Notes under the pieces: model-generated | The model's input: the letters and a program-made list of their open reading frames with translations, nothing else | Databases searched by the model: none | What the model was told of the DNA's origin: nothing | Translations under genes and position numbers: made by a program | NCBI GenBank assembly: GCA_964016885.1 | Contig: OZ024753.1 | Location: forward strand, 8,618,001-8,682,000 | Length of the DNA: 64,000 bases | DNA from: Eledone cirrhosa | Taxonomy: Eukaryota | Direction: 5' to 3' | Shown: one piece after another, positions 222 to 60,170 of the stretch | Numbering within the stretch: position 1 is the stretch's first letter | How the letters are laid out: every line of letters begins with the position of its first letter

Positions 222-282
222 TTACATTTTATTATACATATTTCGGATGTACAACAGTACGTCCTCATCAGACAAAATATAA
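222..282 (-). ncRNA. Minimal hammerhead ribozyme
   Basis: Minus strand reads TTATATTTTGT-CTGATGA-GGACGTAC(TGTT)GTACATCC-GAA-ATATGTAT-A|ATAAAATGTAA; stems I and II pair. Confidence 0.7.
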
Positions 283-363: not shown

Positions 364-424
364 TTATATTTTCTCTGATGAGGACGTACTGTTGTACATC
401 CGAAATATGTATAATAAAATGTAA
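364..424 (+). ncRNA. Inverted copy of hammerhead 222-282
   Basis: CTGATGA at 375, GAAA at 402, one stem I substitution. Confidence 0.65.
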
Positions 425-2063: not shown

Positions 2064-2814
2064 TATAATTATCACTCCTTAATTATCACATTTTTGAAGG
2101 TTTATTATTTCCCATCTCATTTATATTTTTTCCTTCAATAATTCAAATTGACACAGTCCATCCCAAACTATAGAGACGCCACCAGAATCACAATTATATT
2201 CAATTAATATATTAAAAGAAAAACTGCCAAATGAATATTTATCCCATAAAAACTCTGATGTCATTGACTTGGTAGTGTGTAGGCTTTTGTATTTGTTCAG
2301 AAATAGATTACAATTATTTTATTTAAAAAATAAAACTGAGCAATAAAGTGAACTAAACTATATGAGAATATATTCAAAATGTTATAGGCATTATTGTATA
2401 TTATTATTGGCAGTATCGGTAGAGTGTCAGATGCCATGCTTTGCAGCATAGAGTTATGCCCCTTTATGATCTGAGTTCAAATCCCGCTGAGGTCAACTTT
2501 GCCTTTCATCCTTATGGGATCGATAAAATAAAGTACCAGTAACGTACTGCGATAATTGCTGGCCTTGTGCCAAAAGTAGAAACAATTATTATGAAGGCAT
2601 GTTGCTTAGTGGTTAGAGTGTTGGATTTGCAATCATGAGGTTGTGAGTTTGATTCCTAGACTGAAAACTGTATTATGTCTTAGAGCAAGACACTTTATTT
2701 CATGTCTGTCAGAAGTTGCGACTGGTAGGTAGTATCAGCAATAGAAAAACCTATGTAAACATTGTTGTTGTTTTTTTCTTTTTGCTCTGGCAATTCAACC
2801 ATTCCAAGGATGAT

Positions 2815-3545
2815 ATCATAATCCGGTGGCCTCAGCCAATATCAACTCAACAATTGATCTCCACGTGGGTCTGTCGTTCATTGTCATTGCCAAATCCTGG
2901 ATTTCAATACCAGAATCTCTGGCGATGACATCGGGATAGGAGAGCTTGTGCCCCCTGTTATTAGTGACTGCTTGTGGCTTCCACAGCACTAGTGGGGACA
3001 CGGCGTCATAGGTGGCATGATGGCAGTGGCCAGCAATTTGGGATAGGAGAGCTTGTGTCCCCTGTTATTAGTGACTGCTTGTGGTTTCCAAAGCACTAAT
3101 GGGGACACGGCGTCATAGGTGGCACGATGGCAGAGGCCAGCAAATCGGGATAGGAGAGCTTGTGCCCCCTGTTATTAGTGACTGCTTGTGGTTTCCAAAG
3201 CATTAATGGGGACACAGCGTCATAGGTGGCATGATGGCAGTGGCCAGCGATTTGGGGTAGGAGAGCTTGTTCCCCCTGTTATTAGTGACTGCTTGTGGTT
3301 TCCACAGCACTAATGGGGACACAACGTCATAGGTGGCACGATGGCAGAGGACAGCAAATCGGGATAGCAGAGCTTGCGCCCCTTGTTATTAGTGACTGCT
3401 TGTGGTTTCCACAGCACTAATGGGGACACGGTGTCATAGGTGGCATGATGGCAGTGGTCAGCAAATCGGGATAGCAGAGCTTGCGCCCCTTGTTATTAGT
3501 GACTGCTTGTGGTTTCCACAGCACTAGTGGGGACACAGCCTCAGA
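2815..3545 (-). mobile_element. RTE 3' fragment with internal 107-bp tandem amplification (about 5.7 units, 2933-3545)
   Basis: Encodes LWKPQAVTNNRGHKLSYPD..MNDRPTWRSIV; an unamplified homolog lies at 57335-57710. Confidence 0.8.
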
Positions 3546-4024
3546 GGGGGCACAATGATATAGTAGGGTTTTATTAACCGATGGTTGGGTCCTTAGGGTT
3601 TTAGGTATACCGGTCCCCCTCATTTTGCACCACACTACAGCAAAAAATTAAGAAATGATGGGTTCGTAGTACTTGTAAGGCCACAAAGCTTCTTCAGCCT
3701 AGTCAGCCATCTGAATAATATAGCCATGTTATATAGTATGGATATGAAATGCCTATGGTAATATACCATATATACTCAAACATAAGCCAATCTGTATACA
3801 ACCAAACTCCTCTTTTTCATACCTGAGTATCATCATCATCGATTAACGTCCATCTTCCACACTAGCATGGGTTTGACAGGTCCCATTTTGAGGCAAGTTG
3901 TGTCAGGTGACAGTGTCTCGCTCATATAGAGATGGTTTTCTACAGCTGGATGCCCTTCCTAATGCCAAGTAATAGGCGAAAATCCAAACCCTGTTTATAA
4001 ACTAAAGCAGTACATTGTTTAGAC

Positions 4025-4457
4025 CAGTGGAGGGCCATTTTTGAACATCGGAACCACTATTAGGGCCATTAATATTTATTAAACACTATTCCAAAGATTT
4101 ACCACAACTTCTATCCATAACATGGAACTGGGAAATTATAACACGCATAACCCTATCAGAACAACTATTAGGGCCATTAATATTTATTAAACACTATTCC
4201 AAAGATTTACCACAACTTCTATCCATAACATGGAACTGGGAAATTATTACACACATAACCCTATCAGAACAACTATTAGAGCCATTAATATTTATTAAAC
4301 ACTATTCCAAAGATTCACCACAACATCTTTCCATAACATGGAACTGGGAAATTATAACACACACAACCCTATCAGTGAAGCCCTTTGGTATAGGTCAACT
4401 AATAGAAAATTGTATTACTGGGATTGTGGCCCATGGGCTGCTTGTTGCACGCCCTTG
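4025..4457. mobile_element. hAT-like MITE containing a 108-bp x3 tandem repeat
   Basis: CAGTGG...CCCTTG ends with 8-bp TSD-like flanks gtttagac/atttagat. Confidence 0.5.
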
Positions 4458-15730: not shown

Positions 15731-17420
15731 AAATTTGAACGGGAACAAAACAGAGAGGCAGTACGAACAAAGGTTTATTAGTTTCACGCTCTATATATAT
15801 ATTAATACTGAAACAAATATATCGGATATGACTGAAAAATCTTTGACATATATGTATATATTGGTATTTTTGCCTTTACCATTCCTTCACACATACACAC
15901 GTACATACACATGGACATACATACATACATACACACATACATACACATGGACATACATACATACACATGAACGTACGTACATTTCAGAGAATTTGCAACT
16001 GATCTACAGTTTTGAATGTAACCCCCTATTACTATTCATAGCAACTGGAAACCTCATTTGGCACTATTTCTGTTTCCATCACTTTCATCTTCTCTCTAGA
16101 CTATTGTGTGACTGACTGGTCAAAGTGTTTACACGCCAAAATAAGCAAGCCTTTTATGTTTCTATGTAAATAGTAAACTTGACAATAAATCTTTAACCTT
16201 TTATCTTTAATCTCTATTTTGATTATTCTAAAAGTTTTTTTAGAAATAAATAATTCACTTTAGATCCTCACTTCTAGTTTAAGTCCTATAATAACTCTTA
16301 TTATATTTCCATTTTATTTTTTACTATTTTCCACTCTCACTGTTACAGAAGGTTATGCTGTTTACTTTTATAGCTCTGTCACATTAAAAATAGCCCGAGC
16401 TGAATATTAATACAATTATATAAAATAAACTACCAAAGGGACCAAGCATAATTTTGTTGGTCACACACTACCAAAATGTTTCTCTATACAACAGATTATA
16501 TCTAACATAGATTTTTATAATCCAAAATGTAAAACAAAAATACCCGATAAAAAACTTTTACTCCAATGATGCATCCATGTTTCTTTATATTTCTTTGAAA
16601 AGCATGCCTATGTTACTGTTGAATTTTGTCATTGCTTCTGTGATTCTTTAGTTCATTAATGTTGTAAAACTTTGGAAATATATTTTGTGAAATAAATGCC
16701 TATGATTTCTGTCTCTTTTAATAAAAGATATTTATAGAAAGAAAAATGTTTATTAGATGTTTGTTTCTCGACTAATAAATTTAGTGATACATTTGATGTG
16801 ATGTGAGTATAGATCTATGCATAGATTGTAGCGGTATTGTTTATTTCCAAAACGAAAAAAGAACAAAAAAAAAAAGACAAAATATGTAATGGTTTGATTT
16901 AGTGGCAACTAGATAGGAATTTTAATATATTTCATTGGTAAATAAAACACAATAGTAAATATTGCTGATGCAAATATACATAAAGATTTTTAAAATATAT
17001 TTTATTAAAGATTTTAAGTCTAAAAGTTTAATCTTAAATCAAACTTTTCTTAGTAGAGCTATTTATAGTGATTTAAAGTTATATGTTTCAAATTATAATC
17101 AAGTAGAGAAAACCAAAAGAAAAAAAGAAAAAAGAAACAGGTTTCTATTTTCAATAACAAAGTTTTTAATAATTTAGAGTAATTACTGAAAGTTTCTCTG
17201 AGAGTTTTTAATTAATAAAAATAAAACTAAGGCATCACCAGAAAAGGCCTATAAAAGTTGGTAAATGTTTGTTGATTCCAAGTAGTGATGACTGCTGCCC
17301 TTATCAACATTCCAGTTAAGTTTCACGACAAAATGTTAGCATATGAAGAGGTTATTCTGTCATATCATGTATCCTTCCAGGAACAATGCCAATGCTATTG
17401 TATTCAATTTTTTATTGCAG

Positions 17421-17702
17421 ACATAGTGCGTGTCAGGCTTGAGGATCCTGTGAAGCTGATATGTAACATTACAAGAAAGACGGAACCTCCTGATGATATA
17501 AAGTGGTTCAAACAAGGCAAACCCTTAAGCACTGATGTAAATAAAAAAGTTTACATTACAAACTATCGACCTAGAGTTACAAAAACTCTAATCAGTGTCT
17601 TCACAGTACTGAAGAGTAACTATAGTGACACGGGACTTTATATTTGTGAAGAAGGCAACAAAGAAATCAAACGCTTTAAAGTAGATGTTCTTTCTCCATA
17701 TG
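17421..17702 (+). CDS. Second Ig-domain exon (phase 1-1), paralogous to 1089-1382
   Basis: Acceptor tttttattgcag at 17420, donor G|gtaagt at 17703. Translation PVKLICNIT..DIKWFKQG..TLISVFTV..DTGLYICE..RFKVDVLSPY. Confidence 0.88.
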
Positions 17703-18871: not shown

Positions 18872-19059
18872 TATTTACTAAAATAACAGATTAAAGTTTA
18901 AGCAAAGAATCCCGTTAAGGGTGAAAGCAGCGATTCTTTGCTTAAACTTTAATCTGTTATTTTAATAAATATTTGCTCTATGGTTCTTACATATTTGATA
19001 TATATTTATTTATCCTTATCGAGCCCTCTTTGGATTTTAGTCCACAAATTTATTATTAT

Positions 19060-21676: not shown

Positions 21677-22271
21677 GCAAAAGGCAAACAGAAATAACAA
21701 AATAAATGACACAGTACAATGAAAAAATATATTTTTACTTTTACGCTTGCTATAGTAAGAAAAGAGTCTTAACGTTTCAGACGCTATTCCTTCATCAAAA
21801 ACAGAATGAGAAATTAAAGAAGAAATAGAAAAATAGAGGAGATTGGCCAATAGCAGAAATTAACAAAATTTTCTTGAGCAAAAACTGGGATCTATTCACG
21901 TCGCCATCTCTTGTAAAACTGTTGATGCTGGCATTTTTGGGAAGGTGATCTTGTTTTAAAAGGCAGTGATCAAACATGTCTAGCTGAAAAGGAAAAAGAT
22001 CATTTTATTTATATATATACACACATATATATACAGAGAAAGAGAGTGAGAGAGAGAGGGAACAGAGATAGAGGAGGAGTGTGGAAGGGCTCAACATTTA
22101 ACTAGTAGTAGTAGTAGTAGTAGTACATGCAGATAGAAGATACACTGCATTGGAATAGTTTGAAAAATTGAGCCTAGTCAATCAGTAAACATTTTGCTTG
22201 CTTGTTTGTATGTATGTGTGTATGCGTGTGGTATGTATGATTGTATGTATGTGTATATGTATGTATGTATG

Positions 22272-24665: not shown

Positions 24666-24865
24666 CGAAGGAGGTGTGGTAAGGAACCAGATGGACCATA
24701 ATGCACCAGAGTACTCAATACTTAGGGTAGTAGAGTGGGTAATAGGAAAAAGTTTAACCCCGACGCCAGAGACTCAAGCCGTTACAACGGCTATTTCTGG
24801 CTATTGAGTCCAGAAATAGCCGTCGAAACGGCTTGATCTCTGCCGTCGGGGTTAAACGGTTTCCA

Positions 24866-25322: not shown

Positions 25323-25724
25323 ACAAAGGAAATGTGGTAAGGAACCAGGTGGACCATAACGCACCAAAGTACTCAATACTTAGGGTAGTAGAGTGGGTAA
25401 TAGGAACAAGTAAGACCCCAACGGCTGAGCTCAAGCTGTTTCGTCGAAACGGCTTGAGCTCAGCCGTCGGGGTCTTACTTGTTCCTATATATATATATAT
25501 AAAACATGAGAAGAAAGAGGAATACTGCGTGGTTGCACATGGGTTACATATGATAAAATTAGTCTCTCGTCAGTGATTTGCCAACCATCATTGGTATTTC
25601 ATCGCATTAAAAATCATATACCTCAGGTTGGTGCGAGCAATAACTAAAAAAAGCTATTAGGACAAGTAAATGGCGTAAAGCGAGTGAGACAAGTAAACAA
25701 CATAGAAGGATAAAAGCAAACCGA

Positions 25725-26145: not shown

Positions 26146-26571
26146 TAACCTATTGTAACTGTGTAAATTTGCCTCCTGTGTTTTGTTTGTTTCAAGTGGA
26201 CGTGTAAAAGACACGGCAAAAAGCACCCAGCCCACATTGTCACTGTGGTTGGCATTAGGAAGTGTATCCAGTCGTAGAAATCCAACCAGAAACACCCAGA
26301 TGGACGTTTACCAATGTTGATATATATATATATATGTGTGTGCGTGTGTGTTAAGTATTTCCGTAGAAAAGGTAAAGGGAAAAAGAGTGCTCTATTTATT
26401 GTACAGAGCTATTTAATTACATAATAAATAACACAATATAATTATTTCATTACCGAAAGATTAAAAAAACTAGATGTTTTCTTGCAAGAATCATCTGGTT
26501 TCTTGAAACCTTCGGTAATGGGATAATTATATTGTTTGTTTATTATGTAATTATATATATATATATATACA

Positions 26572-27119: not shown

Positions 27120-27182
27120 TCAGAGGAATATATATATATATATATACGATATTAAACAAATGGAAACTATATTTATAAAACC

Positions 27183-27259
27183 ATATTTATTTCATTATAC
27201 ATATTTCGGGGATACCATATTAAAAATATGGCATGCCTTCTTCAGATAAAATACAATAT
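27183..27259 (-). ncRNA. Hammerhead ribozyme (CUGAAGA core), Penelope-like terminal repeat family
   Basis: TATTTTAT-CTGAAGA-AGGCATGCCATATT(TTT)AATATGGTATCCCC-GAA-ATATGTAT-A|ATGAAATA. Confidence 0.7.
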
Positions 27260-28290
27260 ATAAACAGTTTTATAAATAATTTTGTAAATAATTTTATAAA
27301 TATATATATATTTGTAAATAATTTTATAAATATATATATATATATTATATACATAAGAACTGAGAAAAGAATGGGTAAAATGCTGCATGTAAAATTTTTT
27401 TGAAGGATGCAGTACAACAGGAATGATCGTCAGAAAAGAAGAAGCTGATGTGTCAATTGAATTTCTGGTCATGGTACTACACTATGGATATGTCTTGACT
27501 TTTGTTACTGTATTTCTAATGGAAGACACTGGTTATCATTTTGAAAATATAGAGATATGGCCCTTTACGTTCTGAGTTCAAATCCTGCCGAGGTTAACTT
27601 TGCCTTTCATCCTTACGAGGTTGATCAAATAAAGTACAAGTCCTGCTCTGGGGTCAATTTAATCAATTTTACCCTCTGCCCAAATTACTGGCCTTGTGCT
27701 TATACCAGAGATCATTAATTTGAAAATATGGAGTTATGGCCCTTTACATTCTGTGTTCAAATCCCGTTGAGGTTAACTTTGCCTTTCATCCTTACGGGGT
27801 CAATAAAATAAAGTACCAGTAATGCACTGGGGTAATTGCTGGCCTTGTGCCAAAAGTAGAAACAATTATTTTGAAAAAGTTTGAAGGGATTTAAGATCAG
27901 TAATTCATCATCATCATCATCATCATTCAATGCACCTATTATGCTCTGTAAATGTTAGTACTGATGCCACAATATAATACACCAACTTCACTCTATAAGT
28001 GATAATGCTGGTACCACAATAAAATGCACCCAGTACACTCTGTAAAGTGATAGTGTACTGTAGTTGGTGTTAGGGAAGATATTCAGCCAAATGAATCATG
28101 TCAAAATATGGAACATATGAACAAGATATGAATGTCCAACCCATCCACTCTGACAGGCTACATCTTATTTAAAGTTTCTTCCTTTATTATTTATAATATT
28201 GATAGTGTTAGATATGTTGATATATATATGTATTTTTTCCAATTCCACCTCACCTGTCCCTTCAATTAATCTATCTAATTTCTCATTCTT

Positions 28291-28326
28291 TCTTCTGATG
28301 AAGGACTAGCGCCCGAAACGTTAATA
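28291..28326 (+). ncRNA. Hammerhead-like motif (related degenerate copies on minus at 21767-21802 and 30725-30760)
   Basis: TCTT-CTGATGA-AGGACTAGCGCCC-GAAACGTT-AATA; weak stems. Confidence 0.45.
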
Positions 28327-28411: not shown

Positions 28412-28446
<35 letters not shown>

Positions 28447-28592
28447 AGGGTTAAAATACTGGAGTGTGTTGGAGTTAAACACCCTCTTCGTATTATAGAA
28501 ATGACAGTAAAAGGTATAGCTCAATGTAGTTAAACAGAGCCGAAAAATTAAGAAAGTAAAACAAAGAAGCCTTCAATACATCAAAAGTCTTT

Positions 28593-28638
28593 ATTAGCCG
28601 ACAATGTTTCGTCCTATTAAGGACTCATCAGGGCAATT
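28593..28638 (-). ncRNA. Inverted copy of the same hammerhead ribozyme
   Basis: Exact reverse complement of 28794-28839. Confidence 0.85.
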
Positions 28639-28793
28639 AAAACAACAAGAAGTAATATCGGCAGATACAAGCCGGGAGCTCCGAAGAATATGGAGTGTAC
28701 ATACACTAAAGTATTGCAAGATTATGGGTATGTACACTCCATATTCTTCGGAGCTCCCGGCTTGTATCTGCCGATATTATTTCTTGTTGTTTT

Positions 28794-28839
28794 AATTGCC
28801 CTGATGAGTCCTTAATAGGACGAAACATTGTCGGCTAAT
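28794..28839 (+). ncRNA. Minimal type-I hammerhead ribozyme, intact core
   Basis: TTGCC-CTGATGA-GTCCT(TAAT)AGGAC-GAA-ACATTGT-C|GGC; predicted GUC cleavage after 28832. Confidence 0.85.
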
Positions 28840-28876
28840 AAAGACTTTTGATTCTTTGTTTGACTTTCTTAATTTC

Positions 28877-28914
<38 letters not shown>

Positions 28915-28969
28915 CAAGTAAGTATGTTTTGAAACAGTGAGCAGGTTTGAAATTAGAAAATAGAATAGC

Positions 28970-29157
28970 TTTCACCGTATTTTTGACTAAAGGAATTTTA
29001 GTCTAATAATGGGGTTTAGAACCCTCAGATAAAATGGAAAAAGATGAGTATTGACGTACATCTCTCCCATGTACGTCAATACTCATCTTTTTCCATTTTA
29101 TCTGAGGGTTCTAAACCCCATTATCAGACTAAAATTCCTTTAGTCAAAAATACGGTG

Positions 29158-29160
<3 letters not shown>
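28970..29160. repeat. Fold-back palindrome, arms about 90 bp
   Basis: tttcaccgtatttttg...gacgtaca / tgtacgtc...aaatacggtgaaa, 9-nt loop. Confidence 0.9.
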
Positions 29161-29199
<39 letters not shown>

Positions 29200-29263
29200 T
29201 TATCTCGGGTTCAATTGGGAGAAACCACAGCAAGTAAGGTACTCAATACATAGTAAAGTATAA

Positions 29264-29387
29264 ATATTTAATATAGAAATGGCTTCTACAGGACTAGAAC
29301 TGTTTCATTTGGGAGAATGAGAGTCGGCTTTGCTGTTGATTGCTCCCAAATTAAACAGTTCTAATCCTGTAGAGGCCATTTCTATAT

Positions 29388-29395
<8 letters not shown>
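29264..29395. repeat. Fold-back of the 'ggtactcaatacat' family (similar structure at 33101-33190)
   Basis: atatttaatatagaaatggcttctacagg / cctgtagaggccatttctatattaaatat. Confidence 0.8.
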
Positions 29396-29416
<21 letters not shown>

Positions 29417-29420
<4 letters not shown>

Positions 29421-29612
29421 GAAAAAGTATGACCCCGACAGCAGAGCTCAAGCCGTTTCGACAGCTATTTCTGGACTCAAATAGCCGTCGAAATGGCTTG
29501 AGCTCTGCCGTCAGGGTCATAATTTTTTACTATTTCCCACTCTACTACCCTAAGTATTGAGTACTCTGGTGCGTTATGGTCCATCTGGTTCCTTACCACA
29601 ATTCCTTTGTTA
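29417..29612 (-). repeat. 'ggaccataacgcaccagagtactc' family with terminal fold-back (also 5620-5800, 24535-24866, 25320-25487, 54425-54542)
   Basis: Shared sequence, always adjacent to (TA)n, usually with an inverted duplication of gagctcaagccgtttcg. Confidence 0.8.
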
Positions 29613-31172: not shown

Positions 31173-32914
31173 CATCATCATCATCATTTTACTTCCGCTT
31201 TTACCCTGCTTGCAAGAGTGGGACAGGAGCTGATTCTGGCTTGATTTCTACAGCTGGATGCCCTTCCTAACACCAACCTCATTTACAGTGAGTGCTGGGT
31301 GTTTTTTTTCCGTGGTGACTACATGTCCGATTTACAGTGTGGGCTGGGTGCTTTTTTGCCGTGGCATCTCCATGACCACTTTACAGTGGAATGATAGGGA
31401 CCCCAGTCCTATCATCTCATTTCCACAGCTGAGTAAAACTGGAACAATGTGAAATAAAGTGTCTTGCTCAAGGAAACAACACATCACCCGGTCTGAGAAT
31501 TGAACTCACAACCTTTCGATTGCAAGCCCAATGCTCTAACTACTAAGCCATGTGCCTCCATATATACATATGTGTGTGTGTGTGTGTGTATGTATCTAAA
31601 AAGCACACAGTCTATGCTGTAAATGTGGTTGGCATTAGAAAGGGCATTCAGCTGTAGAAACCAACCCAGAAACAGTTCTGTATGAGCAAGATACAGTCAC
31701 CTGATCTGATTTGTCTCACAACGTGACAACTCATCTAATCCATGCTAGCATGGAAAATAATACAACAGGAGGAAACCTGATATTGCCACTGATGATGTCA
31801 CATGTGTGTGATGAAAGAACTTAGACTATAGTATTTCTTAAAGCTTTTTCTGTTAATGTATTAAATATTATACTCTTGATTTGGCCAGGGATGAATATTT
31901 CCAGATACTTTTTAGGTATGACTTTCCGTATTTATTCTTTGTATGAAATATTGATTGTTCTTCCGGTATCTTATCTCTGTTTCTAGCCTAAGAAAATACC
32001 TATATGCGTGTATAAATAATACATGCATATATTTATTTTTTTTATATCCAATTGAGTTGTTCTTCACGCATGGTTAAAATTATTGAAAGAATTAATTGGC
32101 CCGCGTGCATATTATTTTATTCTTTTATGTTTTGCGATGACCTCCCCTTTCTGCTTGATGGCAGCGTGAGATTTCTCATTGTGAGACTGCTGGAATTTCA
32201 AATTTGGCGGTCAATCTGGCACGGAGGGGTACCATCGCTGAACATTAATATCGGTAAGGTTTTTTTTATATCGATATTTGTCGGCCATCCACTGATGATT
32301 TATAAGTGCCCACCTACATATATTCCTACGGACTATATGTAGGCTTCTACATAACCTGGACATTATTTTCCCAGTTTGTAGAAAACTTATAATGAAACGA
32401 TCGTTTGGAAAGAGAGATGTATTTTCATTATGTCCCATATAAAATAATACAACTGGCTATCCGCAAATTACGTATAGTTAGCACCCCAAACGTATAATTG
32501 GGGTTATACTAAGGTAGGTATATCCTAATGTTTGTTGAGTGAGACGGAAGCCGGTCGGAGTATTGCTTAAAGCTTTCTCTGTTAATGTATTAAATATATA
32601 TATATATATATATTTTTAACCATTGGTCAATCAATGATAAACAATGACTGCCAGCTAAATTAACTATTGGGATATAAAATATACAGAATCGAAAACAAAT
32701 CCAAACGAAACAGTGAGTGTGTTTTATTATTATTTCTGGCAATATTATAACAATATGACCCTCCCCAAATATATATATATATATAAATAAAGAGAGGGAG
32801 AGAGAGTAATATGTTGATTCCTGAGTTGTGTCCAGTGGTAACCACAGTTAAAAAAGGTACTCAATACATTGGTAGAGTATAGGCATCTTTATTATATATA
32901 GAAATGACTTCTAC

Positions 32915-32955: not shown

Positions 32956-33701
32956 ATATATATACACACATATATATATGCAAGCATGGAAAAGCGATGA
33001 TCATGATATACATATATATATGTGTGTGTGTGTGTGTGTGTCGGGTTTAATCAAGGGTAACGTCAGTAAGTAAGGTACTCAATACATAGCAGAGTATAAA
33101 TATTTAATATAGAAATGGCTTCTACAGGAATAGAACTGTTTCATTCGATGGAATCAGTTCTGGTCCTGTAGAAGCCATTTCTATATTTAAAAAAAAAAAA
33201 ATATATATATATATATTAATTAAAATAACAGATTAAAGTTTAAGCAAAGAATCGCTGCTTTCACTCTTAACGGGATCTTCTGAAACTAAAAATATACGGT
33301 TCTTATATATTTGATATATATTTATCCTTATCGAGCCCTCTTTGGATTTTAGTCTTCAAATTTATTATTATTACTATATATTATATTGGCAGTATCGGCA
33401 GAGGGTTGGACGCCATGCTTTCTAGCATAGAGTTACGTCCCTTTATGATCTGAGTTCAAATCCCGGCGAGGTTAACTTTGCCTTTCATCCTTACGGGGTC
33501 GATAAAATAAAGTACCAGTAATGTGCTGGGTAATTGCTGGCCTTGTGCCTAAAGTAGAAACAATCATATATATATGCAAAAGTTCTATTTAAAATTGTTG
33601 GGATACAACAAGTAAATATTTTTATAACTGATATAAAGCACTCGACAAGTATTTGGAGTAGATATACGATATTAATAAATGGAAACTATATTTATAAAAC
33701 C

Positions 33702-33777
33702 ATATTTATTTCATTATACATATTTCAGGGATACCAAATTAAATTATGGTATGCCTTCATCAGACAAAATACAATAT
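33702..33777 (-). ncRNA. Hammerhead ribozyme, same family as 27183-27259
   Basis: TATTTTGT-CTGATGA-AGGCATACCATAAT..ATTTGGTATCCCT-GAA-ATATGTAT-A|ATGAAATA; partial inverted copy at about 33848-33921. Confidence 0.7.
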
Positions 33778-34938
33778 ATAACAGTTTTACAAATAAGCTT
33801 TGACGTACCCTATTAAAATGCAACCATTGTTTTTGGAAGCCATCTGGATGGTATCCCTGAAATATGTATAATGAAATAAATATGGTTTTATAAATATAGT
33901 TTCCATTTATTAATATCGTATATATATATATATATATACGCAGTTCCCGTCCCACCCTTGCAAGCAGGGAAAAAGCGGATGTAAAATGAAATGATGAAAA
34001 TAAATTATGAAAATACACACACAGCATAGACATGTTTGCTATAGTTTGTATTATATAGTATATATTTTAACCCATGCTAGCATAGAAAAATGGACGTTAA
34101 ATGTTGATGATGATATTTATTCAAATAGAGTATAACATCTGCATACACACCATTTTATTCCAGTTGCAACAAATATTATGTGACTTCACTTATGGCTATG
34201 GTGAGATCACCAAGGTTATAGAACTTGTTTACTACAACATTAAATTAACCAACCATCACATCAGACTTCATCCTTCAGGACATATCTAATAATAATAATA
34301 GGAATAGTAATAATAATTTATACAGGAGGCTTCACTGCATGAAATTGCTATCTGTCAGACAATCTCATAGAATGCTACTAAGCTTATTGTGCACTCTATA
34401 ACACTGACATTCCTAAGAGCCAATGAGAGTTTCCTTCATGAGGCTGCCGAATTTGTTGGAAATAGCAATCAAATCTTCCTTGAATCATGCCAATATCCTT
34501 TATGTGGCTGCCCAATTTGCTGGAAATAGCAATCAAATCATCCTTAAATCTTGCCAATGTCCTTTATAAAGGGCAAATTAGATACAATACATTTCGAAGA
34601 TTTTTTTTTTTTATATATATATATATAAGTATATTTTATTCATAGTTGTATAAAAAGAAATATAATAATACAATGCTTACAAAACAAAAACACAAACAAA
34701 TATAGTATAGAGGAAAGGGAAAAGAAAAACAAAAAAAAAAGAAAGAGGACAAGAAAGAGAAAAAAAAACAAAAAACCAGAAGCGGGTAGCACATGCATCT
34801 AGGACCACATACAACAAAAGGTAGGTGAAAGGGGTGGACAACCGCGCTTCTACCAGAGTAAAAAATAACAGTATTGCAAGGACTGGGAAACCTCTAATAA
34901 TTTCTGAGGCAAGCCAACACACTCGCAGCGTTACCTTG

Positions 34939-38160: not shown

Positions 38161-39189
38161 GGGCTGGCAGACTGGTAAAATTGTTAGAATGTCAGACGAG
38201 CTGTCACATGGCTAAATACTGCTCCCACCATTGATGAAATTACATTATATACCTGTATAAACATGTGGTATGTGATCATGACACTGTTGCAATTATTCAG
38301 TGGATTGGCAGAATTGGTAGAGCGTCAAACACCATGATTTGCAGCACAGTTATGGCCCTTTACGTTCTAAGTTCAAATCCCGCCGAGGTTAACTTTGCCT
38401 TTCATCCTTATAGGGGCCGATAAAATAAAGCACCAGTAATACACTGGGGTAATTCCTGCCAAAAGTAGAAACAATTAGTCGTGTCCAACCCTTGCAAGCA
38501 GGGAAAGGCGGACGCAAAATGATGATGATGATGATTTTGATGATTATGGGGCTAGCAGATTGGTAAAATTGTTAGGGTGTCAGCCAAAATGTTTTCTATA
38601 AGTTTCTCTGTTCTGAGTTCAAATCCTACCAGGATCAACTTTGATCTCGGAGGAATATTGAAGGACCTGGTGGTGGTGATCAACTGAGCCGCAGATTAAG
38701 TCTACCACTTATTACAGATAAGATACATACAGAAATATATCCTGAAATAAGTAAATTATATATATATATCATCATCATTTTAAGTCCGCTTTTCCCTGCT
38801 TGCACGGGTGGGACGGGAACTGATTCTGGCTTGATTTCTACAGCTGGATGCCCTTCCTAACACCAACCTCATTTACAGTGAGTGCTGGGTACTTTTTTTC
38901 CGTGGCACCTACACGACCACTTCGCAGGGGAATGATAGGGACCCCAATCCCTAAATTATATTTATTATTCATAATGTTAGCTTTATTAAGGAAATCAGAT
39001 GTAAGAGAATTCATTACATATATACATAATATATATATGTGCAGAACTTATATTTGTTGTGATTCAACAAGCTTAAAAGTTTTATAACTGATATAAAGCA
39101 CTCAACAGTATACTGGAGTAAATATTTAATATATTAATAAATGGAAACTATATTTATAAAACCATAATTATTTGAATATATAACCGCTT

Positions 39190-39936: not shown

Positions 39937-41835
39937 AACTGTCCTTTAAAAAATAAGTGCTTAGATAAGGATGTGGTCTATAAATGCACAGTCAAAACCA
40001 GTGACAATATATTTAACTCTGTTAAATATATTAAACTCGTTTTAATAATCACAAATGCTCGTTTAATAATATTGGTAAAAAATCTTCAACTTCTCTATCA
40101 AACCTGATATGGAACTTAAAATCCCAAAATACGGACTATTCTTTAACTTGGGAAATAATTTCAACAGCACCTGCCTACCGAAACACAACTTTATCTAGAT
40201 TTTGCAAATAGTGTGTTGAGGAAATTTTCTTCATACTTAAATGTAAGAACTCTATTAATATACGTATGAATTTGTTTAATTCTTGTAAACATCGCCTAAA
40301 TTCAACCTTTAGAACTATATATAAATTATAATTACACTCATAATATTTCTACTTATTTCCATATATTGTTTGCTATAATTTCACTTCTTATAATTTCACT
40401 TATTAAAATTTTAATATTTTTTAAGTTTTTTAATTCTTTATCTGTTACTTCTTAAATCTTTATTTTTTACTTCTTAAATCTTTCATTTTTCATTTTTTAT
40501 TTTTATTTTTTATTTTTTATTTTTTATTTTTTATTTTTTATTTTTTATTTTTTATTTTTTATTTTTTATTTTTTATTTTTTATTTTTTATTTTTTATTTT
40601 TTATTTTTTATTTTTTATTTTTTATTTTTTATTTTTTATTTTTTATTTTTTATTTTTTATTTTTTATTTTTTATTTTTTATTTTTTACTTCTAAAATATT
40701 TCGTATATTTTTAAAATTATTTTTTTTTAAATCTACTTATCTCTTATAAAATATTTTTTAATAGTTTTAAAAATTTTTTAAAGAATTTTTAAAAAATTTT
40801 TTAAAGGTTTTTTTTTTATATTTTAAAAATATTTTAAAAATATTTTCTGAAATTTTTTTTTAAATTTTCCAGAATTTTTAAATATTTTAAAATATTTTTT
40901 AATAAAATTTATTAGATTTATAACCAATAATTAATTCAGGCTAAATATATATTGCAACATTTATATCTTTGACAAAATGGTCTCATACTAACTAATAAAC
41001 AAACAAAACTGGTGTTCTTTTCCGTATCTTCCCAATTTAAAACATTTAAAATATATAAATATTCTTATTAACTAAGTTAACTTAATTACTTACACTAAAT
41101 ATAAACCAATATCCCTCATAATTCATTAAAACAATTATCTATAACAAGATATACCCATCTATCTATCTATTTTTCTATCTATTGATTCTTCTATTTATCT
41201 ATTTATCTATCTATTTATTTTTCAATATATTTTTCCATCTAATTTTTTATATATATCTATTTTTTCTATCTACTTATAATAGTAAATATTATATTATATT
41301 AGAAAAGAATTCTAACAACAAAATAATAGTAAATATACGTACCGTTCGTAGATATAAACTTAAAACTTATTTACGTTACATGAGTTCTATTCATCCTCTT
41401 GTGAATTTCTTCTCTCTATCTATCTCATAATATTAATATTTTCTCTCTCTCTCTTTCTTCCCTATCTTTCCCCAGCGTCATTTAAATAAACGGTTGTTTT
41501 TTCAGTTATTTACACATTCATTTGCATATTCACACATAACTTTGAATAATCCCTAATATGGTTCCACTATCCAGTGAATTTCCGACCAATAAGGTATGAT
41601 TTTCATGGGTACGACTTTATTTATAAAACAAACTTTGTATTTTATCTGATGAAAGCGCACCAAGGTTGGGTTGGTTGCCCTTCAAATATATATAATAAAA
41701 TAAATATGGTTTTATAAATATAGTTTCCATTTATTTAATATCATGGAATATTTACTCCAGTAAACTGTTGAGTGCTCTAAATCAGTTATAAACATTTATG
41801 TTTATATTCCAACAAATTAAATACAACTTCTACTT
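39937..41835 (+). mobile_element. Decayed 5'-truncated Penelope-like element (GIY-YIG remnant, AT-rich 3' region, hammerhead-like terminal repeat)
   Basis: 39937-40310 translates, with lesions, to [72 protein letters not shown] core at 41646. Confidence 0.75.
40480..40690. repeat. (TTTTTTA)n heptamer array
   Basis: Direct inspection. Confidence 0.95.
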
Positions 41836-41929
41836 ATATATATGTATATATGTTTTACACATACAAGATTCTTAGAGGGAGTTTATATACATATATATAT
41901 ATGTATATAAACTCCCACTAAGAATCTTA

Positions 41930-42205
41930 TATGTGTAAAACTCTCAGAAAGTATAAGTATGTGTAAAACTCTCAGAAAGTATAAGTATGTGTAAAACTCT
42001 CAGAAAGTATAAGTATGTGTAAAACTCTCAGAAAGTATAAGTATGTGTAAAACTCTCAGAAAGTATAACTATGTGTAAAACTCTCGGAAAGTATAAGTAT
42101 GTGTAAAACTCTCGGAAAGTATAACTATGTGTAAAACTCTCAGAAAGTATAACTATGTGTAAAACTCTCAGAAAGTATAAGTATGTGTAAAACTCTCAGA
42201 AAGTG
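41930..42205. repeat. 28-bp minisatellite, about 10 units
   Basis: Unit tatgtgtaaaactctcagaaagtataag. Confidence 0.95.
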
Positions 42206-44312: not shown

Positions 44313-45014
44313 ATATATATATATAAATTACCTTACATAATATCTCACATAACATTTACATCACTCTATATTTACTATTATATTTTCATGGCTTTATCTC
44401 ACATAATATTGAATCTGAGATTTTGTTATTATTTAATTTGTGAACAATACCTTATCATCAGTATGAGTGATTTACAGCAGGTTTGAAGAGGAAAAGGTGA
44501 GAGAATTCAAAAGACTTTAGAATTATATGGAAATTGAATCAATGATGCTTTTCTACCACGTTTCCATTTCTGTCCACAGATATATAATTACCATTATTCA
44601 AATTAACTTGGTTTATCTACACTCTATCTCTTTACAAAAATATATCTATATACAAAGTTACGTGATATATATCATCATTTCATCATCATTTCATTTTATG
44701 TCCGCTTTTTCCCTGCTTGCAAGGGTGGGACGGGAACTGATTCTGGCTTGATTTCTACAGCTGGATGCCCTTCCTAACACCAACCTCATTTACAGTGAGT
44801 GCTGAGTGCTTTTTTGCCGTGGCACCTCCACGACCACTTTTGCAGTGGAATGATATGGACCCCAGTCCCTATCATCTCATTTCTACAGCTGAGTAAACTG
44901 GAGCAATGTGAAATAAAGTGTCTTGCTCAAGGAAACAACACATCACCCGGTCTGAGAATTGAACTCACAACCTTTTGATTGCAAGGCTAATGCTCTAACC
45001 ACTAAGCCATGTGC

Positions 45015-45567: not shown

Positions 45568-48500
45568 TCATCATAATCATCATCACCGTTTTACGTCCGT
45601 TCTTCCACGCTAGCATGGGTTAGACGGGTTGTCCTGTTGTGGGCAGTGTCTGGTCGGCTGACCATGCCTTGCTCATACAGGAACTGATCTGGCTTGATTT
45701 CTACAGCTGGATGCCCTTCCTAACACCAACCTCATTTACAGTGAGTGCTGGGTGCTTTTTCGTGGCGCCTACACGTCCACTTTACAGTGTGGGCTGGGTG
45801 CTTTTTTGCCGTGGCACCTCCACGACCACCTTGCGGTGGGGGGGGGGCATATTGTTTATATGCTTCAGCATGTACCCATGGGAGGTCGGGTACCCTGTAT
45901 TACTGCGTGACGCCAGAAGTCACGGTCGTGTGTCATTGACTTTGAGAGGTGTAGTTGGGTAAGGTCGGCTTTTATCACCTCATCCCAAGTCATCTTGGGT
46001 CTCCCCACTCCGCGGTTTCCATCAACTTCTAGTGCTCTGCACCTTTTTATGCAGCTGTCATCCTTCATACGCATCACATGTCCATACCAGCGTAACCGCC
46101 TCTCCTGCACGCAGCATTTGATTCCTCTTATGCTCAGTCTCTCTCTCAATTCATTTATGCTTTGTCGTTCACGTATATTACTGTTACACATCCATCGGAG
46201 CATGCAGGCTTCGTTTCTCTCTAATCTACGTAAGTCTTCCACCTTCAGCGCCCAGGTCTCACTACCATGCAACATCGCTGTTCGGATACACGCATCATAC
46301 AGTCTGCCTTTCATTCTGAGGGAGAAGCCTTTTGCAGCTAGCAGTGGTAGTAGTTCCCTAAACTTCTTCCATCCCGTTCTTACCCTAGTTATTGTACTTT
46401 CTGAGCACCCACCTCCGTTGCTAATTCGGTCACCTAGGTAGCAGAAGCTGTCTACTGTTTCTACAGGGCCCTCCCAGAGATTGGTGGTACTTGTTTCCTG
46501 TGGCTGTTTGCTTGCTGTTTCAGCACAGCTGCTGCATGTGAATCCTACATTCTTAATTAAGCTTCCTGAGATCCCGCTACATCTCTTGTGTACCCATTGT
46601 TTGCATTTGGGGCAAAGAATGGAGTTCCTACCTACACCTTTCCTACATACTGAGCAAGGCCATTTCCCTGAGGGGATCTGGGTTCTGTTTTCTCGTCTAC
46701 TTATAAGGACCTTAGTCTTTGTCATGTTGACTTTGAGGCCCTTTCTCTCTAGTCCCTGCTTCCAGGTTTGGAATTTATTCTCTAGTTCTACCATAGATTC
46801 AGCTATGAATGCGAGGTCATCAGCATACAGGAGTTCCCATGGGCATCCGGTCTTAAACTCCTCCGTTATTGCCTGCAGGACTATGATGAACAGGAGAGGG
46901 CTAAGAACAGAGCCCTGGTGGACCCCAACCTGTACGCTAAATTCCTCGCTATACTCATTGCCAATCCTAACTTTGCTGACTGCTCCCCTATACATGGCTT
47001 GTACCGCTTTCACAAGCCATTCATCTACTCCTAGTTTTCTAAGAGCCCACCAGATTACTGCACGTGGAACTCTGTCAAAGGCTTTCTCAAGGTCGACAAA
47101 TGCCAAGTAGAGTGGCTTACTTTTAGCTAGGTACTTTTCCTGTAATTGCCTCACAAGGAAGAGCGCATCAGTGGTGCCTTTCCCTGGAACAAACCCAAAT
47201 TGCATCTCGTCTATATTCACCCGGTCCCTAATCAGCTGTGCTATAACTCTTTCTGTTACTTTCATGACCTGGTCCATCAACTTTATACCTCTATAGTTTC
47301 CTCTATCTAGTGCATCGCCTTTACCTTTGTAGCAGTTGACAATGATGCTACTGCACCAATCTTTTGGTATGGCCCCCTCTAGTATTACCTGGTTAACGAT
47401 ACGTGTGGTTATAGTGTGACCTACAGACCCAGATGCCTTCAGCATCTCGGCAGCTATACCCGATGGACCGGTTGCCTTCCCTATCTTCATATCTCTGATT
47501 GCCTTACTTACTACGCTGCCGCTGACTTGTACTGCTGGTCCCTCTATAGGGTCTACGTGGGGTAGGGTCTCTTCTTCCCATGCATTCTCCTCATTTAGTA
47601 ATCTATCATAATGACTCTTCCATGCATCTTTCTTCTCAGCACTTGTGAGGGCAAGCTCACCTTTATCATTCCGGATACACTTCTCTCCAATGACATCACA
47701 ACTATCTCTGACACACTGCCTCGCAATCTTGAATACCTCCTGTTTCTGGTCCTCACGTTGTAAAACATGCTCGAATTTTCTATCCTCTGCTTCCCTCCTA
47801 GCTAAGTATACTTGTCGCCTAGCTTCCCTCTTGGTCTCTATGTAATGTACCCTGCTCCCCCCGTTCTTCCATTCTTTCCATGCCTGTCTCTTGGCCTTGA
47901 CTGCTTCATCTACCTTATTGTTCCACCACCAAGTCACTCTCCTCCTGCTTGAGGTCTTACTCCAGCCACAAACCTCATCCGTCGCCTCTAGTAAGTTATT
48001 TTTTAGGAACTCCCAGTTCTCTTCTACGTTAAATGTCTCTATCTGTTCTTCTTTACTGTCGTAGGCGTTGAGTAAAATATCTTTAAATCTGTTACTGGTT
48101 GAGGGGACTTTCAGCTTCCAGATCTTTCTTCTCCAGGTTGGCCTCTGTTTCAGGGCTCGTCTAGTTCTGACCGTGAGGTCGCTGACAACTAAGCTATGTT
48201 GGGATGTACATTCCTCACTAGGGAAGGCTTTTGTGTTTACGACCGTCCATCTGTCACGTCCTCTGATGAGGATAAAATCTAACTGACTAGAGTGCTCCCC
48301 TGATCTATAGGTGATCAGGTGGTTGTCGGGTTTTTTAAAGTTTGTGTTACATATCGACATGTCATTGGCGTCGCAGAATTCTAGAAGTCTGAATCCTTCC
48401 TCATTCCTTGTGCCAACTCCATGGCCTCCATGTACTCTATTGAAGCCGTCGCAGTGTTTACCTACGTGTCCGTTAAAATCTCCTGCAATGATTAGGAAGT

Positions 48501-49057
48501 CCTTGTCGTCTGTTAGAGCAGTAGTGTGTATTAGGGACTCGTAAAACCTATCCTTAAGTTCGTCTGGCAGCCCCGATTGGGGTGCGTAAGCTGATATTAT
48601 TGTGGTAATTGTCTTATTCAGGACTAGTCTGAGTTTAATGATTCTTGCATTTACCCTGTACACTGAGATTACTTTATCTACCCACTTGTCAGCTAATAGT
48701 ATACCTACACCACCCATCCCATCGTCATTTCCCACCCAGAAAAATTTGTAGCACTGGCTTTTTCCTACAAGGACTCTAGCAGACCCTCCTCTCCATCTAG
48801 TCTCTTGCACACAGCATACATCAACTTCCTTTCGCTCTAGCATTTCTACGATTTCTCCTGCTCTTCCTTTCATTGAGCCTACATTGATGGTACCAACTCG
48901 GAGTTTTGGGCATTTGTCGACACTCGTAGGGGAGGGTCTCTGGGTTGGCGCTTCACGTGGGTGCTTGGTAGCTCGCAGATTCATATTTCATCTATTGATT
49001 CAGAGTTGCTCGTGTATTCCCAGCTCATCCATCCCTAACGGTGGGAAAATTGAGGGC
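45568..49057 (-). mobile_element. Near full-length RTE LINE with SINE-like 3' UTR and (GAT)n tail, flanked by (TA)n on both sides
   Basis: About 70-nt leader, ORF, about 300-nt 3' UTR ending in a GAT repeat. TA tracts at about 45018-45567 and 49058-49435. Confidence 0.9.
45865..48984 (-). CDS. RTE-clade LINE ORF: AP endonuclease, reverse transcriptase and C-terminal Cys/His (PHD-like) finger
   Basis: Uninterrupted 1039 aa. APE motifs [28 protein letters not shown] motifs [37 protein letters not shown]-type [17 protein letters not shown] tail. Confidence 0.97.
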
Positions 49058-55960: not shown

Positions 55961-55996
55961 GTGGCACAGTAACATCAGCAGGAAATGTGAAAAGAG
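55961..55996 (+). CDS. 36-nt phase 1-1 microexon (G)GTVTSAGNVKR(G), likely the post-Ig linker of the IgSF gene
   Basis: Long polypyrimidine tract plus tgtag acceptor, AG|gtaagt donor, length divisible by 3, same phase as the Ig exons. Confidence 0.6.
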
Positions 55997-56941: not shown

Positions 56942-57200
56942 CAGCAGAGTTTAAAGAGCAAAGATCAAGTCCAGTCCATAGGTTGACATTATCAAGCCAT
57001 CGTTTTGGCTTCCTGGAAGGAATTTTGGCTGGTAAGAGAAGCAGAGGCCAGCAGCCAAAACGATGGCTTGATGATGTCAACCTATGGACTAGACTTGATC
57101 TTTGCTCTTTAAACTCTGCTGTTGGTGATCAAAATTTGTGAAGAAAAATATCTCATGTTGATGTGCAATCTGCAACTGGTGGAGTTAGTATATGTAGTGT
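56942..57200 (+). mobile_element. RTE 3' fragment with inverted duplication of about 70 bp
   Basis: LEGILAGKRSRGQQPKRWLDDV; arms 56942-57010 and 57051-57121. Confidence 0.75.
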
Positions 57201-58919: not shown

Positions 58920-60170
58920 TTGAGGATGCCATGCTTTGCAGCACAGTTACGTCCCTTTATGGACTGAGTTCAAATCCCGCCAAGGTTAACTTTGCCTTTC
59001 ATCCTTACGGGGTCGATAAAATAAAGTACCAGTAATACACTGGATTAATTGCTGGCCTTGTGCCAAAAGTAGAAACAATTATCATCACTGAGGGCAGTGG
59101 ATTGGCAGGGTCAAACGCAATGCTTTGCAGCACAGAGTTACGTCCCTTTACGGTCTAACTTCGAGTCTCGCTGAGGAGAACTTTTTACGTGGTCGATAAA
59201 ATAAAGTACCAGTAATACACTGGTATAATTGCTGGCCTTGTGCCAAAAGTAGAAACAATTATTAGTTTTATTGTTGTTGATAGATTGGCAGTATCAGTAG
59301 AGAGTCAGAGACTATGCTTTGTAGCATAGAGATATGGCCCTTTATGTTCTGAGTTCAAATCCCGCCGAGGTTGACTTTGCCTTTCATCCTTACGGAGTCG
59401 ATAAAATAAAGTACTAGTAATTGCACTGGGGTCGATTTAATTGACTTTCCACTTCCCTTCAAATTGAAAGGAAAGGTAACCTTGATGGGATTTGAACTCA
59501 GAACGCAAAGGGGTGTAACTCTATGCTGCAAAGAATGATGTCCAACCCTCTACTGTTACTGCCAATCCACAGCCTTTAATAATACAAATAATTGTTTCTA
59601 CTTTTGGCACAAGGCCAGCAAATACCCAGTGTCAGTGTATTACTGGTACTTTATTTTATCGACCTCGTAAGGATGAAAGGCAAAGTTAACCTCGGCAGGA
59701 TTTGAACTCAGAATGGCAAGGGGACGTAACTCTATGCTGCAAAGCATGACCTCCGACCCTCTACTGATACTGCCAATACATCGCCTTTAATAATTGTTTC
59801 TACTTTTGGCGCAAGGCCAGCAAAATTCCCTAGTGTATTACTGGTACCTTATTTTATCAGAATGGCAAGGGCCGTAACTCTATGCTGCAAAGCATGACGT
59901 CCGACCTTCTCCTGATACTGCCAATACACTGTCTTTAATCATCATCATCATCATCATCATCATAATAATACTAATAATAACTGTTTCTACTTTAGGCACA
60001 AGGCCAGCAATTTCCCCAATACATTACTGGTACTTTATTTTATCGACCCCGTAAGGATGAAAGGCAAAGTTAACCTCGGCGGGATTTGAACTCAGATCGT
60101 AAAGGGACGTAACTATGCTGGAAAGCATGGTGTCTGACCCTTTACCGATACTGCCAATACACTGCCTTTA
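58920..60170. mobile_element. Cluster of about 7 SINE-B copies: three + followed by four -
   Basis: Family B sequence in both orientations, switching near 59450. Confidence 0.85.

Follow-up and report, generated by a model that had tools for sequence, protein, structure and literature searches.

A probable dead-end Penelope-like insertion with head-to-head hammerhead motifs in an intron of Eledone cirrhosa

A large intron of the octopod Eledone cirrhosa holds a near-perfect fold-back that carries the same hammerhead ribozyme motif on both strands, which raises the question of how such a structure came about and whether transcripts running through it would cut themselves. With a probability of roughly 0.83, we regard it as a dead-end insert left by a Penelope-like element (PLE), i.e., two 5'-truncated, hammerhead-bearing ends placed head-to-head between (TA)n runs, with the ribozyme predicted to be trapped by the antisense arm. 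The window analysed here is the whole stretch of 64,000 nt at positions 8,618,001 to 8,682,000 of contig OZ024753.1 (assembly GCA_964016885.1), and all coordinates count from its first letter.

Mapping of related proteins assigned the surrounding sequence to an octopod Ig-domain gene (zig-8-like, also annotated as "hemicentin-2"), with plus-strand exons at about 1085–1381, 17420–17702 and 55961–55996 bordered by GT/AG sites. Since exons with such sites lie on either side, the element sits in a GT...AG intron of 38,258 nt on the plus strand (17703–55960), with about 10.7 kb and 27 kb separating it from the closest exons mapped; the first-pass annotation of this DNA had guessed an intron of an IgSF gene, which the mapping and the splice sites confirm. 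The Ig-domain exon at 17420–17702 is 99% identical to a zig-8-like protein of Argonauta hians and 96% identical to a protein of Octopus sinensis, while another host exon is nearer to O. sinensis (98% vs. 88%).

The inverted arms (28580–28704 and 28728–28852) measure 125 nt each and are complementary at 124 of 125 places, the sole mismatch being 28652 vs. 28780. Between them lies an inversion-junction spacer of 23 nt (28705–28727), in which the centre of symmetry is the 6-bp palindrome TTGCAA (28714–28719). The palindrome first noted at 28581–28851, with a hairpin given as about 120 bp and found here to be about 125 bp, thus stands as described, but its ends are not those of the element: homology between the arms runs further, beyond a gap of 12 nt deleted from the right arm, and self-comparison, alignment and the ends of the repeat family set the whole insertion at 28451–28880. 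The left copy (28451–28719, element sense on the minus strand) is, from the family contigs, 5'-truncated near 28719 and has a long 3' tail reaching to about 28446–28451. This tail is one-sided, spans about 96 nt (28451–28546, minus strand), contains a stem-loop with an A/C-rich loop near its end and is absent from the right copy, as seen from the alignment, the predicted fold and the family ends at 28451, 28547 and 28559. The right copy (28728–28880, plus strand) begins about 15 nt closer to the 3' end of the repeat than the left one does, carries the 12-nt deletion after 28851, which is not among the family indels listed in the contig alignment, and ends at the equivalent of the family end at 28547 with an 8-nt stutter. 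A check for target-site duplication returned (TA)n on both flanks (28424–28446 and 28880–28911), likely the target site. The ends are asymmetric by the extra 96 nt or so on the left, so that fixed, symmetric terminal inverted repeats are not found. There is no open reading frame in the 431-nt unit and hence none of the RT plus GIY-YIG type that marks an autonomous EN+ PLE. Folding of the unit gave z = -38.6, and the hairpin energies predicted for read-through transcripts of the two strands are -234 and -227 kcal/mol.

Both arms carry a type I hammerhead motif, at 28597–28634 on the minus strand (predicted cut after 28600) and at 28798–28835 on the plus strand (predicted cut between 28832 and 28833), as located by descriptor, Rfam model and folding. 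In each, stem I is GCC/GGC (3 bp in its proximal part), followed by CUGAUGA (28801–28807, plus; 28631–28625, minus), a stem II of 5 bp with a UAAU loop, GAAA, a stem III of 2 bp with a 3-nt loop, and a GUC site. The core elements of the class are all present (CUGANGA, GAAA, an NUH triplet, the G10.1-C11.1 pair, stems I and II), and stem III is short, near-palindromic and capable of pairing in a dimer, with a predicted self-duplex of -3.7 kcal/mol around a central U-U mismatch. Directly 3' of each hammerhead is an AATAAA (28590–28595, minus; 28837–28842, plus), which starts 4 nt after the predicted cut in both arms. The two hammerheads are one motif duplicated by inversion and not independent of each other. 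A strict descriptor of type I hammerheads matched 4 times in the 64-kb window and not once in 100 dinucleotide shuffles; it bears out what had been noted beforehand, namely identical hammerheads on opposite strands with all core nucleotides and a GUC triplet, and the motif anatomy likewise supports their assignment to the short-stem-III type I hammerheads of Penelope elements and retrozymes. The Rfam search proposed as a check had a divided outcome: RF00163 (Hammerhead_1) matches each arm over its full length (model positions 1–45 of 45; 3 bp of proximal stem I, then mismatches), with 31.7 bits and E = 1.3e-5 per arm, which is under the gathering score of 34, and a whole-window Rfam scan at gathering cut-offs for that reason does not list the palindrome hammerheads. 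Rfam miRNA and snoRNA matches to the unit were dismissed, as they are far below their cut-offs and reflect plain hairpins.

What kind of repeat was duplicated can be read from contig sets of four sequencing runs from one study and at most two samples (runs X1–X3 are one sample), the runs containing 29–44% of the sampled words; contigs were aligned to the left half only (28450–28727), and their depth is not a copy number. The family is multicopy, with 490, 505, 544 and 43 contigs aligned in the four runs. Among the ends listed, loose ends joined to (TA)n occur at 28451 in four of four runs (12, 7, 13 and 1 contigs), at 28547 (3, 5, 8 and 2 contigs) and, in two runs, at 28559 (5 and 4 contigs). 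The left arm stops at the first of these family ends, the right arm at the second. Family contigs extend past 28719 with other letters and the studied copy is therefore 5'-truncated, its truncation point lying at the central palindrome. Depth falls 5' of the ribozyme from 141–235k to 11–49k in X1–X3, a fall that is absent in X4, and over 28720–28727 it amounts to 2,452–4,451 in X1–X3 and 0 in X4; this last depth may reflect ragged alignment ends, or other copies with the same junction. No strand-change joint is among the joints listed in the family contig alignment. Inside the arms, all 14 family-variable places agree between the two copies, and both carry G at 28676, where A makes up 99.9–100% of the family depth. 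Owing to this shared haplotype, a single template likely gave rise to both arms in the same event, suggestive of a one-off fold-back. The seemingly private allele may instead be lineage-specific, if the runs come from another individual or a close species.

An inverted, 5'-truncated copy arranged head-to-head, a hammerhead inside the repeat and a (TA)n target, all found here, are the marks of a truncated PLE. PLE insertions are reported to be 5'-truncated and frequently to bear at the 5' end a second copy, inverted and likewise 5'-truncated, as well as to have a tail of 30–40 bp on one end and, in some clades, a (TA)n bias (Craig et al., PMC8557442). The head-to-head form has been described as the most frequent PLE arrangement, with palindromes at the junction (Arkhipova et al., PMC3846280). 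The present element is like such a truncated PLE with an inverted pLTR copy in its head-to-head inversion, junction palindrome, one-sided tail and (TA)n target (PMC8557442; PMC3846280). It is unlike EN+ PLEs in having no ORF and no RT partner found, and its tail, which matches discrete family ends, is about 96 nt long compared with the published 30–40 bp. Dual minimal hammerheads about 100–700 bp apart on opposite strands are also known from Schistosoma, where most minimal hammerheads were attributed to truncated PLEs (Cervera and de la Pena, PMC4209133); ours resemble them in being of type I, about 170 nt apart and each with a tiny, near-palindromic stem III. They differ in a 5-bp stem II with no bulge after A9, whereas the minimal motifs described for Schistosoma have 7–8 bp and a bulge, and in their stem III (2 bp, 3-nt loop) they come nearer to the variants with a "small palindromic helix III". 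Published work already knows this layout as a by-product of PLE insertion, and a single locus matters little; the value of this one is that of a clean example, in which both arms are of one haplotype and yet end at two different family 3' ends.

Following published Penelope biology, an element-encoded GIY-YIG/RT protein would have nicked the (TA)n target, reverse transcription would have started from the 3' initiation sites of the family, and the inverted second copy would have been made in the same event as the first. This could have happened if the first-strand cDNA snapped back and primed itself near the TTGCAA junction palindrome; self-priming on an antisense template has been proposed for PLEs (PMC3846280). 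An alternative option would be priming on the two strands of the target, with 28451 and 28547 as start sites, and subsequent joining of the two cDNAs. The latter route would offer the simpler account of a second arm that stops at a family end, but the data separate neither, and the way in which PLEs make inverted ends is stated as open in the literature (PMC8557442; PMC3846280). In PAc, a Penelope/Poseidon element of Anolis, both strands of the target, which is AT-rich, were reported to be nicked and extended, and two sites of RT initiation to delimit the tail (PMC11167929). Our element is like PAc in its AT-rich target, in two 3' ends differing by a tail, in an A/C-rich stem-loop close to the distal 3' end and in a hammerhead upstream of the 3' ends. 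By analogy, the stem-loop in the tail may be an RT start site. In contrast, PAc is autonomous with an ORF that starts at stem II (PMC11167929); in our element, all three frames run into stops after it.

By its anatomy, the unit corresponds to the pLTR region in an insertion of a PLE with an endonuclease. That no RT-coding partner could be tied to the family counts against the PLE reading, as do the long tail, the fall in depth seen in X1–X3 only, the lack of strand-change joints among those listed and the depth over 28720–28727; identity as an autonomous PLE was rejected for want of an ORF in the unit. On the minus strand, a 41-codon open frame (28450–28572) runs to the far 3' end of the family, and a family variant at 28490, seen in three runs at 14–16% of the depth, creates a start codon in frame; the ORF of an autonomous partner might begin here. 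A protein search with the 41-codon tail frame, in itself a weak test, returned no match. The same intron also holds a 1040-codon LINE ORF that looks intact (45868–48987, minus strand), with an APE endonuclease and an RT whose region contains a PHD finger. It is the only long RT ORF listed in the window and was rejected as a PLE partner, being of the APE-type LINE class.

Turning to the fate of transcripts, the antisense arm precedes the ribozyme in read-through transcripts of both strands, owing to the head-to-head arrangement. In equilibrium prefix folding of growing transcripts, which does not model kinetics, the predicted probability of stem II was 0.0 in eight of eight read-through prefixes and 0.88–1.0 in eight of eight prefixes starting in the loop. 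For the latter, stem I reached 0.48–0.81 on the minus strand and only 0.02–0.04 on the plus strand, and the active fold of the monomer is predicted at -5.0 kcal/mol vs. -10.9 kcal/mol for the MFE, i.e., about 6 kcal/mol above the minimum. Self-comparison found no tandem direct copy in the window, where one sense and one antisense copy are present, so the head-to-tail tandem of a non-LTR retrozyme is replaced by an inverted pair only. Published PLE hammerheads were inactive as monomers and weak as dimers (PMC4209133), and that of PAc requires the protein of the element (PMC11167929). Taking together the absence of predicted stem II in read-through transcripts, the inactive published monomers and the missing tandem partner, the host pre-mRNA is therefore predicted to remain uncut. 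The models predict that it carries a 125-bp duplex instead of a self-cleaving RNA: on the plus strand the antisense arm would emerge first and zip up with its partner. Such a duplex would likely be a substrate of ADAR, or of RNAi; A-to-I editing in animals was reported to be concentrated at pre-mRNA fold-backs of young repeats (bioRxiv 2020.01.19.911685). Today, the palindrome is most likely a silent remnant, as judged from these predictions. Self-cleavage and silencing had initially been offered as equal options, which the folding does not support, stem II being 0.0 at every read-through prefix, and the proposed action as a dimer fails on one RNA, as the motifs face opposite ways and no tandem dimer is possible.

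Could the palindrome nevertheless be a live two-polarity ribozyme unit, which spreads as one piece and gives rise, by outward transcription from the loop or by processing through trans-dimers, to small linear or circular RNAs in the manner of retrozymes? We consider this improbable, in spite of several features that speak for it, including the intact core and GUC in a family whose depth is 62–92% GUU, the stem II and minus-strand stem I predicted for loop-started transcripts, the stem III self-duplex, the non-zero depth over 28720–28727 in X1–X3 and the bidirectional promoter suggested for pLTRs (PMC3846280). The unit is indeed like animal non-LTR retrozymes in being short, non-coding, multicopy and PLE-related with a type I hammerhead, but these form head-to-tail arrays with circular RNAs and need a tandem direct copy (PMC7229834; bioRxiv 10.64898/2026.07.22.740005), while the palindrome is an intronic inverted pair with no direct copy nearby; retrozyme identity was rejected on this ground. 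Moreover, the G at 28676 present in both arms occurs in the family at single-copy depth or not at all, which fits a one-off event, and the junctions of three hammerhead fold-backs in the window are all different. The poor plus-strand stem I even without the antisense arm, the unfavourable active fold and the published record of PLE hammerheads as inactive monomers, weak dimers or protein-dependent ribozymes (PMC4209133; PMC11167929) also argue against it. Still less probable is that the host keeps the hairpin as functional intronic dsRNA, e.g., as a source of editing, splicing signals or small RNAs in the Ig-domain gene. A near-perfect 125-bp duplex on the pre-mRNA strand and the preference of editing for young fold-back repeats (bioRxiv 2020.01.19.911685) would fit such a role, but the nearest exons found are far away, hairpins are common in the window (21 local inverted-repeat alignments, some of the same feature), and a recent origin accounts for the identity of the arms.

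The remaining explanations appear highly improbable, each to the same degree. Being short, non-coding and multicopy, with long inverted arms and a TA-rich target, the unit could pass for a MITE or foldback DNA transposon with a chance hammerhead-like motif in its terminal inverted repeats. This identity was rejected as the ends are asymmetric and variable, with about 96 nt extra on the left and at least three different (TA)n-joined ends in a family that extends beyond the junction; the complete hammerhead followed by AATAAA and the solo, one-armed copies of sister families in the window disagree with it as well. Near-perfect palindromes are also a known class of artefact, and no contig spans the whole of the aligned stretch, which covers the left half only, so that a fold-back created during library preparation or assembly has to be weighed. 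Against this, the arms are told apart by one substitution, the 12-nt deletion, the 8-nt stutter and another, distal mismatch; each of them stops at a natural family end, the flanks lack mirror symmetry, and so does the spacer. The dead-end PLE insertion thus remains the preferred reading.

Within the family, the cleavage base is U for 62–92% of the depth (GUU) and A for up to 5%, with G not listed, and the studied copy combines an intact core with GUC. GUU is slower to cleave than GUC. It nevertheless belongs to the cleavable NUH sites (PMC3138052). Decay of a CpG was rejected as the source of GUU, since the changes listed with a share of at least 3% do not include the mirror one at 28599, and for this reason a subfamily difference appears more likely from the sequences at hand. 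A15.1 is variable at 3.7%, in X4 only. Variable places are not scarcer in the ribozyme (3/38) than outside it (21/231; Fisher p = 1), so that by variant density no purifying selection on the ribozyme was seen within the family. As for covariation in stems I and II, whose absence had been named as part of a possible refutation, three listed changes at paired places (28615, 28638 and 28642) retain pairing by a change on one side, and none is shown to be two-sided, in a contig alignment that lists single columns only. Across elements, stem II shows 7 two-sided cells in 6 pattern-selected sequences (alignment A1) vs. 0 in 500 shuffles, although A1 is not an unbiased test, as it consists of the window and five other loci chosen by eye as real-looking and leaves out L008 (a near-duplicate of L004), L002, L005, L007, L009 and L012.

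The studied copy is not the only structure of its kind in the window. A second hammerhead fold-back, of another family (193–453), has a near-perfect centre, 98% arms and full motifs at 241–271 (minus) and 375–405 (plus); it folds alike, with a predicted stem II of 0.0 in read-through vs. 0.85. Its family is further represented by a solo copy (610–713, minus) and a fragment (559–594). A third one (33659–33926), of yet another family, holds a full motif at 33723–33763 (minus), and has a right arm that starts within stem II and runs out into (TA)n; solo or partial relatives lie at 27147–27279 (minus), 41599–41759 (plus) and 39100–39180 (minus). About 130 nt to the left of the studied element, a degenerate hammerhead-like motif with a mismatch in stem II (28295–28325, plus) belongs to a fourth family with a relative at 21680–21816 (minus). 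Another fold-back family, in which no hammerhead was found (24745–24864, 25403–25485 and 29422–29527), has a one-sided tail, (TA)n ends and a junction that differs each time, and is possibly PLE-derived. Further fold-backs from several repeat families occur at 18874–18969, 26416–26551, 28965–29165, 29246–29412, 33103–33190, 41852–41941, 56942–57121 and 59015–59858, and the density of perfect hairpins in the host introns is high. Given several fold-back families in one window, fold-backs are routine in this genome.

It is tempting, if rather doubtful, to extend this to octopods in general: their introns would be strewn with PLE fold-backs, tolerated since the ribozyme is disarmed on both strands, which would act as major, unrecognised ADAR substrates of cephalopods and whose paired ends would record two-strand priming. 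If true, a solo ribozyme on the sense strand would cut the pre-mRNA and the head-to-head form would not. Such copies in an octopod genome bear on the choice between snap-back and two-strand priming, on the question of whether fold-backs escape the orientation bias of intronic ribozymes, and on a possible feed of fold-backs into the extensive A-to-I editing of cephalopods. On the host sense strand, one of the four strict hammerhead matches was found, inside the studied fold-back, a number too small for a test of such a bias. In support of the PLE reading of the studied copy, recently active Penelope families were reported in Octopus vulgaris (PMC13282606). For the giant squid, 235 Hammerhead_1 matches are listed, with no details of structure given (PMC6962438). 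A description of octopod hammerhead fold-backs was not found in the literature searched, with most subscription journals, Repbase and Dfam lying outside the search.

Beyond cephalopods, a family-specific hammerhead pattern had 0 matches in metagenome contigs and a single one in viral contigs, which was rejected as a phage type I hammerhead with only the core in common; this motif lies among tRNA-like genes (L001, 3001–3029, minus) and is unrelated beyond its core. A relaxed pattern returned 11 metagenome loci, none of them homologous to the element outside the ribozyme. In 3 of these 11 (L003, L004 and L008), an RT ORF is followed closely on its 3' side by this ribozyme scaffold, which speaks for the PLE reading, with the reservation that L004 and L008 are near-identical and that likeness of the scaffold is what the search pattern selected for. 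The two metagenome RT ORFs that were scanned gave weak RVT_1 matches (E = 1e-3 and 2e-4), and we take the RT ORFs of all three loci to be PLE-type from their motifs. L003 and L004 appear to be endonuclease-free and share with the element only the ribozyme scaffold. L003 (hammerhead 220–256, ORF 470–2686) and L004/L008 are contigs with terminal direct repeats, and L004/L008 have an Asn-rich upstream ORF. Back in the Eledone window, two tRNA-like heads on the minus strand (31493–31550 and 44952–45009; Rfam tRNA, 29–30 bits) likely belong to tRNA-derived SINEs.
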